Positions 33,001 through 39,000 of a stretch of 56,388 nucleotides of DNA are shown here, piece by piece (within the stretch, counting starts at the first letter, position 1; every line of letters begins with the position of its first letter). The position numbers are program-made. The stretch covers positions 1 through 56,388 of IMG/VR virus record IMGVR_UViG_2909282993_000001, one strand, 5' to 3'. This stretch comes from a virus. Taxonomy: Duplodnaviria > Heunggongvirae > Uroviricota > Caudoviricetes.

Positions 33001-36000
33001 CCGGTGAACCCAAAGCCGGGGTTGAACATCTTGAACCCTACGGTTTTACCGCAAGGGCAAACAGCGGTGCGGAAGCGGTGGTGTTGTTTCCGGATGGCGA
33101 CCGTTCTCATGCGGTGGTTGTTACGGTGTCGGACCGGCGCTACCGCCTGAAAGGGCTGCAGACGGGTGAGGTGGCTGTCTATGACGATCAGGGGCAGTCC
33201 GTAACGCTGACCCGGGAGGGGATCGTGGTGGACGGTGCAGGTAAAACGATCACGTTTCGCAATGCACCTGAAGCACGTTTTGAAATGGACCTGGAAGTGA
33301 CAGGACAGGTGAAAGACCTGTGCGACTCCGGCGGCACCACCATGTCAGCGATGCGGCTTGCCTATAACGGGCATCGTCACAGAGAGAACGGTCAGGGCAG
33401 TAACACCGACAAACCTGATAAAGCGATGGAGGCATGATGGAACTGTGGCTGACGGTGAACGGTAAACGCACCTGCGCCAGCGCACCGCTGGATCCGCTGA
33501 CCCGCGCCGTGGTGATTTCCCTGTTTACCTGGCGGCGGGCGGAGCCTGATGACAACGCTGACGTCCCGATGGGATGGTGGGGGGATACCTGGCCTGCGGT
33601 ACAGAATGACCGTTACGGCTCCCGACTGTGGCTGCTTCAGCGCAGCAAACTGACCAATCAGCTGGTGCAGACGGTAAGGGGGTATATCCGCGAATGCCTG
33701 CAATGGATGATTGATGACGGCGTGGTGTCCCGCATTGATCTGGATATCCGCCGCACCGGGATTAATGAGCTGGGTAACAGTATCACCCTCTGGCGTCGTG
33801 ACGAACCGGTAATGATTTCTTTTGATGATCTGTGGAGTGCGATAACGCATGGCGGACAGTGAATTTCAGCGCCCGACGCTGGCAGAAAATATCAGTATGC
33901 TCCGTAACGATTTATTCGCCAGGCTGGACGTCAGCGACACGCTCCGGCGCATGGATGAAGACGTGCGGGCAAAGGTGTATGCGGCGGCGCTGCATACGGT
34001 CTACGGTTACATCGATTATCTGGCAATGAATATGCTGCCTGACCTGTGCGATGAGTCCTGGCTGGCGCGACATGCTGCGATGAAACGGTGTCCGCGCAAG
34101 GGAGCCACGGTTGCCAGCGGGTATATGCGCTGGGAAGGTGTCAGCGATGGCCTGAAGGTGACTGCCGGGAGTGTTATTCAGCGCGATGACCTGGTGCAGT
34201 ACACGACAACTGACGATGCAATCAGCTCCGGTGGTGTCCTGCGCGTGCCGATCGCCTGCTCAAGTGCAGGTGCGGTCGGTAACGCTGACGACGGTACGGC
34301 ATTAATCCTGGTCACGCCGGTGAATGGTCTGCCGTCTTCCGGCGAGGCAGATACCCTGACAGGTGGATTTGATACTGAAGAGCTGGAAACGTGGCGCGCC
34401 CGCGTCATTGAGCGGTATTACTGGACGCCTCAGGGCGGGGCTGACGGGGACTATGTCGTCTGGGCTAAAGAAGTGCCCGGCATTACCCGCGCATGGACAT
34501 ACCGTCACTGGATGGGAACGGGAACTGTCGGTGTGATGATTGCCAGCAGTGACCTGATTAATCCCATTCCGGAAGAATCAACGGAAACGGCGGCAAGACA
34601 ACATATCGGGCCACTGGCCCCGGTGGCAGGCTCTGATTTGTATGTGTTCAGGCCGGTGGCACATACGGTGGATTTTCATATCCGCGTGACGCCGGACACA
34701 CCGGAAATACGGGCTGCCATCACCGCGGAGTTGCGTTCGTTCCTGCTGCGTGATGGTTATCCGCAGGGAGAACTGAAGGTATCGCGTATCAGTGAGGCGA
34801 TTTCCGGTGCGAACGGGGAATACAGCCATCAGTTGCTTGCACCGGCAGACAATATCTCCATTGCAAAAAATGAACTGGCGGTACTGGGGACGATTTCATG
34901 GACGTGACAAACGATGATTACATCCGTCTGTTGTCGGCACTGTTGCCCCCCGGTCCGGCGTGGTCAGCCAGCGATCCGTCGATTGCCGGTGCGGCACCGT
35001 CATTAACCCGCGTTCATCAGCGTGCGGATGCCCTGATGCGGGAGCTGGATCCGCGCACCACCACTGAACTGATAAACCGCTGGGAGCGTCTGTGCGGTCT
35101 GCCGGATGAATGTATTCCCGCAGGGACACAGACCCTTCGCCAGCGTCAGCAACGGCTGGATGCGAAGGTTAACCTGGCGGGCGGCATCAACGAGAATTTT
35201 TATCTTGCACAGCTTGCAGCCCTGGGCAGACCAGACGCTACCATCACGCGATACGACAAAAGCACGTTCACCTGCTCATCGGCCTGTACTGACGCGGTGA
35301 ATGCGCCGGAATGGCGGTATTACTGGCAGGTCAACATGCCAGCCGCCACAAACACCACCTGGATGACATGTGGCGATCCCTGTGATTCCGCGCTGCGTAT
35401 CTGGGGCGACACCGTTGTCGAATGTGTGCTTAACAAACTCTGCCCGTCGCATACCTACGTAATTTTTAAATATCCGGAGTAATCCATGCATCGTATAGAC
35501 ACGAAAACCGCGCAGAAGGATAAGTTCGGCGCGGGTAAGAACGGTTTTACCCGTGGTAACCCCCAGACCGGCACACCTGCCACCGATCTGGATGATGACT
35601 ACTTTGACATGTTGCAGGAGGAGCTTTGCAGCGTGGTGGAGGCATCCGGTGCCAGCCTGGAGAAGGGGCGGCACGACCAGTTGCTTACCGCGCTTCGTGC
35701 GCTGCTGTTAAGCCGCAAGAATCCGTTTGGCGATATCAAATCGGATGGCACGGTGAAAACGGCTCTCGAAAACCTTGGTTTGGGAGAAGGCTCTGCATTA
35801 CCTGTTGGTGTGCCTGTTCCATGGCCTTCAGCCACACCGCCAACAGGCTGGCTGAAATGCAACGGTGCGGCATTTTCTGCTGAAGAATACCCGGAACTGG
35901 CAAAGGCTTACCCGACAAATAAATTGCCTGATTTACGTGGTGAGTTCATTCGTGGCTGGGATGATGAACGTGGTGTGGATAGTGGGCGAACTCTGCTTTC

Positions 36001-39000
36001 AGCGCAAGGAGATGCTATTCGAAACATTACTGGCGGTTTTGGTCAGTTGCGCGTAAACAGCGAAATTAATGCAATTGTCGATGTTCAAAGTGTGAGTGGG
36101 GCTTTTTACGGAGGTACCTCAGTCCGGAATAACATCAATGTATCTATGACATACGCTAATGACCGAAAAATCCGACAAGATGTTCACTTCTCGGCGGCAA
36201 ATGTTGTTCCAACAGCAAATGAAAATCGTCCACGTAACATCGCCTTTAATTATATTGTGAGGGCCGCATGATGAATAAAGCCGTATTGAATAGTGAACTC
36301 ATTGCCATAAAAGCGGGAGACATTATCATTTATAATTATGATGGTGAAACGCGGGAATATATTTCTACATCAACTGAATATCTCGCTGTCGGCGTCGGTA
36401 TCCCGGCATGTTCCTGTTTGGATGCACCAGGTACACATAAAGCTGGTTATGCAATCTGTCGCTCTGTAGATTTAAATTCATGGGAATATGTGCCAGACCA
36501 TCGCGGTGAAGTTGTCTATAGTACCGAAACGGGAGATACCAAAGAAATCGCAGTTCCGGGTGATTATCCTGAAAATACAACCACTATCGCCCCGTTAACG
36601 CCATACGATGAATGGGATGGTGAGAAATGGGTGACCGATACTGAAGCACAGCATAGCGCCGCAGTAGGCGCGGCAGAAGCACAGCGTCAGTCACTGATTG
36701 ATACTGCAATGGCTTCCATTAGTCTGATTCAACTGAAATTGCAGGCCGGGCGGAAGCTGACGCAGACAGAAAACACCCGACTTAACGCTGTGCTGGATTA
36801 CATTGACGCGGTGACGGCAACAGATACCAGCACCGCGCCGGACGTCATCTGGCCTGAACTGCCGGAGGCGTAGGCCATTCAATATCTGGCGCACCGGAAG
36901 TATCAACCAGTTCCAGTGCGTCCAGATAATCCAGCCATAAATTATATTGTTCCAGCTCGTCACCTTTCAGACGACCAATAGCAGCTTTGCCAGGCCACTG
37001 ATGGGTATTGATGTAGGTATTGACTTCTGAAACCAAAGATATTTTTTTCATTTCAGCCGTCAACACCTCATCCTCTTTTGAAGGTGGTGGGGAATTAATC
37101 CATACTGGCCGTCCTGAACTGTCAGCGCCAATTTCTTTCCCTTCTGGATGCAGACCAAGAAATTGCTCATATGTTTCTCTGGTAATTTCAATAACATCAT
37201 CAGGAAGCGTTCCCGCATCCTCATATTCTGGAAACAATTCTTGCAGATAAAAACTTTTACTTCCGGGTGAAAAGAATACTGAGTTCATTATTACCGTCCA
37301 ATGATTAACGCTGAGACGCTGGTATCTGAAGGAAAGGCTGCATTCAGTGGTTTGTCGACTTTGAACACAATCGTATTATTCCCCCTGACAGCGGCAAAAG
37401 AACAAACCGCAGTCGCGTATGAACCTGTAATATTACTGGATACACCACCATAAGCTGTTGTTGATACCAGAGGGATAACGCCCAGCACCTTATTAGGAAA
37501 TACAAAGGGTAATGTGGCTGTGGCAATATAAGACTTATTAGAACCTGTGATGGCATAAGCATTATCAGTCATTCCATTCATCGCCACTGGGCCGCTTATA
37601 CTTACAGTAACCATCTGAATGATTAGCCCGTCAGGTTGACGAATCACAAAATTTCCATTGCCACCAGTAACCGTCCAGAAAGACATATCAGGGATTTGGT
37701 TTTCCCCGTTGCCCACATTCCGTTTTGCCGCTTCTCCCAAACCAACGTTTATGAAAATGCAGAAATAACGAGCAAATGGCATCATTCCTGCTTTTGTCAG
37801 GGAGATCTACCATGCTTATTGGCTATCTACGTGTGTCAACAAATGACCAGAACACAGATCTACAATGTAATGCGCTGAACTGTGCAGGATGAGAGCTGAT
37901 TTTTGAAGACAAGATAAGCGGTACAAAGTCCGAAAGGCCGGGACTGAAAAAACTGCTCAGGACATTATCGGCAGGTGATACGCTGGTGGTCTGGAAACTG
38001 GACCGACTGGGGCGCAGTATGCGGCATCTTGTCGTGCTGGTGGAGGAGTTGCGCGAACGAGGCATCAACTTTCGTAGTCTGACGGATTCAATTGATACCA
38101 GTACCCCAATGGGGCGCTTTTTCTTTCATGTGATGGGTGCCCTGGCTGAAATGGAACGTGAACTGATTGTTGAACGAACAAAAGCAGGACTGGAAGCTGC
38201 TCGCGCACAGGGACGAATTGGTGGACGTCGTCCCAAACTTACACCAGAACAATGGGCGCAGGCCGGACGATTAATTGCAGCAGGAATTCCTCGCCAGAAG
38301 GTGGCGATCATCTATGATGTTGGTGTATCGACACTGTATAAGAAGTTTCCGGTCGGAGATAAATGAAACCGCAGGCTCGTCGTATGCAAGAAAGTGCTGC
38401 GGCTGGCCAGCTTCTGATAGTGCGAATATTGAATGATTTCTATCTGTTATAGATTTTACCGTATTTCGGCATGAATGAAACTGAATATCCTCCCACCGAT
38501 TCTCCATGACTTTACGCCACTGTCTCTAGGGCTGCTATGTGCCAGGAGCGGACGTTTCTATAAGTCAACATTCCGGCACTTTAGGTTGAAGTTTAGGAAG
38601 TTTTAGAGTTGAGAAGATTACTTTTGAACAATTGAACCTGCAGTGTTAATAGAATGGTACGAACTTTTTTAATCAACTTCTCATATTAACGCTTAAAATT
38701 CACCCAGCTTAAGTTGTTGTGTCCTTTATATAATCCTGTTATCTTATCCGTAGGGCAGTGGTGTAAAGGTGCACGCTCTAGCAATAGAGAGGTCCAGGTT
38801 CGAATCCTGGATGCCAAAAAACTCAAGCGAGTTTTTTGGCATCAGGATTCTCGTTAGAGTATATGAGATGGCTCAGAATGATACTTCACTAATAGTTCCC
38901 CCTTCTTCGTCTCCTCGTAGAGAGGATGAGTTGTATCTTTCTGATCCTGACGCTTACATTTTTAAAGTTAAGACATGGCACCAAAGCAATTTTGACTCTG

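Follow-up and report, generated by a model that had tools for sequence, protein, structure and literature searches.

A tail-fibre inversion switch of the Pin/e14 type in an enterotoxigenic Escherichia coli prophage, most likely frozen by a nonsense codon in its invertase gene

Can a phage tail-fibre inversion switch still turn when the gene for its own recombinase carries a premature stop codon? The question is raised by a prophage in the 56,388-nucleotide (nt) stretch of DNA analysed here (positions 1 to 56,388 of IMG/VR record IMGVR_UViG_2909282993_000001; hereafter the window), in which a complete invertible tail-fibre segment adjoins pin, a gene for a pinE-type serine DNA invertase that is interrupted by an in-frame TGA. 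Our analysis points to a Pin/e14-type switch on an otherwise intact e14/SfV-like prophage, whose recombinase gene was knocked out in lineage 7 of enterotoxigenic E. coli (ETEC) by a single C>A change (Cys27stop). Most likely the segment is now fixed so that a 261-amino-acid (aa) collar-domain fibre is expressed together with a tfaE-like chaperone; the gp53-like fibre tip and the chaperone that belongs to it would stay silent. We give this reading a probability of about 0.8; its likeliest history would be the neutral decay of a prophage accessory gene.

Translation of pin yielded MLIGYLRVSTNDQNTDLQCNALNCAG followed by the stop, with 157 further in-frame codons leading to the normal stop, in agreement with the initial annotation, which had reported a TGA at codon 27 with the rest of the protein in frame. 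The read-through product matched the Pfam families Resolvase PF00239 (E = 7e-51) and HTH_7 PF02796 (E = 4e-15), and the closest solved structure to Pin was Mu Gin 3UJ3 (E = 1e-92, residues 1-181). The TGA parts the RVST motif (residues 7-10) from the remaining protein and leaves no uninterrupted invertase frame, and the pin start codon can yield only a 26-residue peptide. The next listed in-frame open reading frame (ORF) past the stop begins at GTG 37986 and encodes 126 aa without the Ser9 region; any restart product lacks the Ser9 nucleophile, as that annotation had also held.

The distribution of the stop was established by comparison with relatives. Region 35400-38450 of the window matched two chromosomes at 100% identity, those of E. 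coli O169:H41 ETEC strain F6326-C1 (NZ_CP024263.1) and of the ETEC lineage-7 reference isolate E1373 (L7_E1373_ETEC, NZ_LR882990.1), and the TGA was found in both of these independent assemblies, each annotated 'internal stop'. Of 5,426 complete E. coli genomes, only 2 contained the exact 80-mers spanning codon 27, and each of the next-best genomes was two bases off. A degenerate-pattern scan of metagenome stretches (43 with matches) and GTDB genomes (one with a match) recovered another 45 copies with this allele background, codon 27 reading TGC in 42 copies, TGT in three and TGA in none. Every intact relative read TGC or TGT, and Cys occupies the corresponding position in Gin and Cin as well. 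Because of this restriction to 2 of 5,426 genomes, the lack of TGA in all 45 further copies and the Cys in Gin and Cin, the stop is a derived change private to one ETEC lineage. The observation of the interrupted gene is already on public record as the RefSeq pseudogene call in both assemblies.

The switch itself is complete. Two 26-bp crossover sites lie in inverted orientation, and the pair of alternative C-termini for the fibre and the pair of assembly genes described in the initial annotation were recovered from the ORFs, from Pfam matches and from an in-frame simulated inversion (Table 1). Both sites consist of 12-bp half-sites flanking a 2-bp core, with the cores (TT and AA) inverted relative to each other. 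The fibre gene in its present orientation has a constant 5' part (35486 to ~35775) and carries the phage tail collar domain in its variable C-terminus. In the silent fibre the Gp53-like_C match was sub-threshold (22.9 bits against a cutoff of 24.9), and its mechanical ORF extends through the crossover site to 37785. In silico core exchange joined the constant fibre 5' part to the silent C-terminus in frame; the fibre then measured 247 aa and the assembly protein encoded after it 147 aa, compared with 261 aa and 201 aa at present; either C-terminus fuses in frame with the constant part and precedes its own Caudo_TAP gene.

Relatives with an intact Pin carry both orientations. Among relatives, the simulated inverted arrangement, used as a query, was recovered as one contiguous match in 21 genomes, against 39 genomes with the arrangement of the window. 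Over 3,621 bp, strains PRO_A-1443 (Tanzania, L062) and fS25a (Malawi, L063) differed in nothing but an exact inversion, 1,972-1,986 bp long, whose breakpoints map to the two crossover sites; the breakpoint interval includes the central TT of the left site, and a polymorphic base in the inner half-site had moved along with the segment. Because the segment has been exactly inverted between these two genomes, the switch appears to work when Pin is intact. Both strains, together with strain LR-03, encode the intact ancestral Pin WP_021570684.1, which differs from the window pin product only at three private changes.

LR-03 (NZ_AP027474.1) is the nearest relative with an intact pin and differs from the window over 35400-38450 at exactly three positions, all within the first 81 nt of pin. 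These are the stop-creating change (37892 C>A, TGC>TGA, Cys27stop) and the substitutions Val6Leu (V6L) and Arg19Cys (R19C). There were zero differences over 35240-37826, so the sites and the whole segment are identical, and the only visible defect therefore lies in pin and its predicted enhancer. Haplotypes with one or two of the three changes were found in none of the complete E. coli genomes, the 43 metagenome stretches or the GTDB genome. Over the wider interval 34122-40646, the further differences from LR-03 comprised two dense patches of the mosaic-recombination type and three scattered single changes; three of the six single changes fall within 66 bp (P ~0.008 by simulation, a post hoc value based on small counts). 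A template-switch origin of this cluster was considered and rejected, no nearby direct or inverted template being better matched in the mutant. The LR-03 prophage is badly degraded, a large deletion having fused its large terminase gene to baseplate J (1316-2508 of the LR-03 stretch, L002); its invertase and switch are intact despite this, whereas in the window the prophage is structurally intact and the invertase dead.

The stop-creating base also falls within a predicted cis-acting element. A recombinational enhancer is annotated at cin nt 19-86 in the P7 record, which corresponds to window 37830-37897, and the alignment of pin, cin (P1, P7) and gin contained two conserved 15-mers of the G-N13-C type, at nt 23-37 and 71-85 and 48 bp apart. 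These 15-mers were assigned as Fis-like cores from the P7 annotation and the pin/cin/gin alignment, together with the rules for Fis sites given in PMC4784862. The distal core has the consensus G[T/C]GCAGGATG[T/C]GA[G/A]C, and nonsense base 37892 is its position +3. Positions +3/+4 form a pyrimidine-purine (Y-R) step in every intact allele and read A-G in the window. A Y-R step is present in ~80% of the half-sites of well-characterised regulatory Fis sites, and Fis affinity fell 140-fold when the step was taken out of both half-sites of a model sequence (PMC4784862). Two AT-rich spacer stretches, of which TAATG is one, contact Hin helix B, and replacement of both lowered inversion 2.5-fold (PMC3798978). 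Taken together, the sequence comparison suggests that the predicted enhancer is weakened in the window; if so, a helper invertase would work less well on this segment.

These data allow the other explanations to be weighed. A sequencing or assembly error, with a true codon of TGC or TGT and an intact pin, would require little, since a sense codon is just one base away, but the same TGA and both neighbouring private substitutions were present in two independently sequenced isolates whose chromosome sizes differ; because the two assemblies share all three changes we reject error, to which we attach a negligible probability. Recoding of UGA as selenocysteine (Sec) or tryptophan, or restart, could give enough active Pin for rare switching, and here UGA stands in for Cys, Cys/Sec pairs are known and UGA is leaky in E. 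coli. However, no hairpin resembling a selenocysteine insertion sequence (SECIS) was found after the UGA (the 71 nt from the UGA folded with a z-score of -0.83, 35 of 200 shuffles being as good), and an Rfam scan of 37700-39000 at E <= 1 returned no SECIS-type family, only unrelated weak matches. Recoding is also unlikely because a conserved recoding site would not be lineage-private; a read-through product would still have V6L and R19C, R19 being conserved in Pin, Cin and Gin, and restart products would lack Ser9. We therefore regard residual switching by this route as very improbable.

The initial annotation had allowed for another chromosomal invertase acting in trans, and Gin, Cin, Pin and Hin are known to substitute for one another, both sites are intact and the genome holds other serine recombinases. 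Nevertheless, neither tblastn nor blastn detected a second invertase inside the window, and a sensitive blastn search of the F6326-C1 chromosome gave two pin-like places, the second of which matched only the first 319 nt of pin (the catalytic-domain part). This second place is a pinH relic at 2277895-2278053 beside ypjA (located by K-12 synteny), annotated as a partial pseudogene, whose 53 codons correspond to Pin residues 42-94 and lack Ser9 and the DNA-binding domain; K-12 pinH matches pin nt 124-270. Two plasmid records contained three serine recombinases with 38%, 36% and 25% identity to Pin, all resolvase-type (Tn3-type or plasmid-type), two of which adjoin Tn3-family transposases. One of them, a Tn3-type resolvase on the 150-kb virulence plasmid NZ_CP024265.1 (L014 6596-7156), reads GYVCVSS, with Cys at the position aligned with Pin Arg7 of RVST; it is a second serine recombinase of the same genome with Cys in place of a Pin Arg. 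Any helper would in addition need in cis the distal Fis core, whose Y-R step the stop-creating base is predicted to harm. Continued inversion in trans is accordingly highly doubtful in our estimate. As pin can give only the 26-residue peptide, restarts lack Ser9 and no other Pin-family invertase was found by these searches, the segment most likely no longer inverts.

Several points weigh against a frozen switch produced by one-hit decay. Among the stop codons of E. coli, UGA is the most readily read through, and since invertases act at low levels, trace Pin activity may persist. The blastn search for helpers is blind to invertases below ~65-70% DNA identity, and the assembly of plasmid unnamed1 is incomplete. 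Both stop-bearing genomes have the segment in the same orientation, but they represent one lineage, so this common orientation is weak support. Finally, three private protein-altering changes in 66 bp fit one-hit decay poorly (P ~0.008, post hoc). The last point would be accommodated by selected locking, in which enzyme and enhancer were disabled and the collar orientation frozen, or by a single error-prone repair patch. The preceding 2.6 kb contain no such change, intermediate haplotypes are absent from all genomes and metagenome copies searched, and the region homologous to the annotated enhancer takes in two of the three, one of them at +3 of a Fis core; the virulence plasmid NZ_CP024265.1 (150 kb) carries a UmuD/Y-family (Pol V-like) polymerase pair at 44273-45969. 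Yet the statistic is post hoc and its counts are small, the other LR-03 differences cluster too, in the manner of ordinary mosaic recombination, and the search for a template-switch source found none. We consider selection or a repair patch unlikely, and neutral decay of pin with a frozen segment remains the preferred reading.

Comparison with known systems places the locus within the Pin family. The E. coli K-12 e14 Pin/P-segment (pinE, stfP/tfaP, stfE/tfaE) is alike in the RefSeq names pinE and tfaE and in its layout, with the invertase just outside a ~2-kb segment that swaps fibre C-terminus and chaperone through 26-bp sites, and the prophage here has the e14-named genes ymfK, ymfT, ymfL, ymfQ and ymfR. 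Whereas e14 is a remnant, the window holds a full-length prophage at thrW, with an invertase that carries a nonsense codon, V6L and R19C and with fibre tips of the collar and gp53-like variants. The initial description of the segment as Mu G-like holds for the switch logic: the Mu Gin/G-segment likewise consists of a constant part, a variable part with its chaperone and their inverted counterparts, followed by the invertase; gin and pin share 71% DNA identity and two Fis-like cores at the same gene positions, and the window has a Mu-like baseplate/tail module. The system is nonetheless of the Pin/e14 type on an e14/SfV-like prophage and not Mu itself; the constant fibre part spans ~170 codons in Mu S but only ~97 here, the modules for head, terminase and regulation are of P27/HK97/e14 type and not of Mu type, and the invertase is dead. 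In the P1/P7 Cin/C-segment, cin aligns one-to-one with pin (74-75% DNA identity), but it lies on the opposite side of the segment, with cixL overlapping its end, and the phage backbone differs. K-12 pinH (b2648) is likewise a decayed Pin-family gene in E. coli chromosomes, present also in F6326-C1 beside ypjA. It is, however, a 147-bp internal fragment without an invertible segment, whereas the window pin is full-length, with one stop and an intact switch adjoining.

Table 1. Features of the tail-fibre inversion switch and of the interrupted invertase gene (window coordinates)
Feature	Position	Strand	Remarks
Tail-fibre gene, present orientation	35486..36271	+	261 aa; Pfam Collar E = 1e-15; RefSeq 'phage tail protein' WP_000554687.1
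Left 26-bp crossover site	35763..35788		CTCTCGAAAACC-TT-GGTTTGGGAGAA; within fibre ORF; inverted repeat
Tail-fibre assembly gene, tfaE-like	36268..36873	+	201 aa; partner of expressed tip; Caudo_TAP E = 1e-30; RefSeq tfaE
Alternative assembly gene, silent at present	36845..37288	-	147 aa; Caudo_TAP E = 3e-27; follows alternative fibre after simulated inversion
Alternative fibre C-terminus, gp53-like, silent	37291..37744	-	ORF; PHROG tail-fibre families; Gp53-like_C E = 1e-4
Right 26-bp crossover site	37732..37757		TTCTCCCAAACC-AA-CGTTTATGAAAA; natural inversion breakpoint also here
pin (pinE-type serine DNA invertase) pseudogene	37812..38366	+	184 codons; RefSeq 'pinE, pseudo, internal stop'
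Private substitution G>C, Val6Leu	37827	+	Relative to LR-03; seen in no other genome or metagenome copy
Proximal Fis-like 15-bp core, inferred enhancer	37834..37848		pin nt 23-37; conserved alignment block within P7-annotated enhancer region
Private substitution C>T, Arg19Cys	37866	+	Spacer between the two Fis-like cores, adjoining TAATG
Distal Fis-like 15-bp core	37882..37896		pin nt 71-85; 48 bp from proximal core
Premature TGA, codon 27	37890..37892	+	Base 37892 = A; C or T in relatives

The prophage extends from ~1447 to 40740 and is e14/SfV-like with a Mu-like tail. It starts directly 3' of the thrW tRNA-Thr(CGU) gene (1369-1444), and its right end is marked by a 48-bp repeat of the tRNA 3' end (40741-40788). 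The gene order runs from the integrase through an e14-type regulatory region (ymfK, ymfT, ymfL), replication/antitermination genes, holins and endolysin to a P27-type small terminase, an HK97-type head, a contractile Mu-like tail/baseplate, ymfQ, the tail fibre, the invertible segment and pinE. Within the entire prophage, the RefSeq annotation marks only pinE and one small frameshifted gene as pseudogenes. Between the tape-measure and DNA-circularisation genes of the tail module, but on the other strand (-), a small OB-fold protein gene (~29928-30374, RefSeq) resembles a moron-style insertion. In all, three copies of the tRNA-Thr 3' part were present, at 1399-1446 and 40741-40788 (48 bp, 100% identity) and at 55347-55372 (27 bp, 96%), which points to two tandem mobile elements at thrW. 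The second island (~40789-55372) has its own integrase (40953-42167), an int-alpA RNA (42212-42279; Rfam, 45.5 bits) and primase, Icd-like and PerC-like genes, and resembles a P4-type satellite.

The AT-rich cargo region after pin contains a tRNA-like element at 38754-38842 (+), just under the Rfam tRNA threshold (26.6 against 29 bits, E = 0.006), for which ARAGORN made no call. Its T-arm is perfect (GGTTCGAATCC) and it ends 3' in GCCA, but the acceptor stem is shortened and a loop of 4 nt stands where the anticodon loop is expected; a hairpin and T-run follow directly. Immediately downstream lies ORF 38868-39707, a function-unknown gene of PHROG 12663 without a Pfam or PADLOC match. At the right end of the prophage, 39974-40405 (-) encodes a '4-fold beta flower' protein (Pfam Bflower, E = 5e-27; the ORF starts MKKSLVLVMFLFSACV), a gene that also follows pin in LR-03. 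PADLOC gave no match for either of the two cargo genes that follow pin, and a search for promoters and terminators near pin yielded nothing informative.

A lineage-specific pseudogene is ordinary gene decay, and the type of switch is textbook. What is new here, and goes beyond the initial annotation, is the pair of private missense changes V6L and R19C beside the stop and the location of the stop-creating base inside the distal Fis-like core of the predicted cis-acting enhancer, which together make a modest curiosity. In the Gin/Cin/Pin/Hin family, the enhancer bound by Fis coincides with the first ~90 bp of the invertase coding sequence; because of this dual role, a seemingly simple nonsense mutation can also weaken trans-complementation. 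The locus is of little import beyond the strain, although it would offer a naturally occurring control in work on Pin-dependent switching. Should the prophage prove inducible, the particles released would have a single receptor-binding tip out of the two that the segment encodes, and their host range would be narrower.

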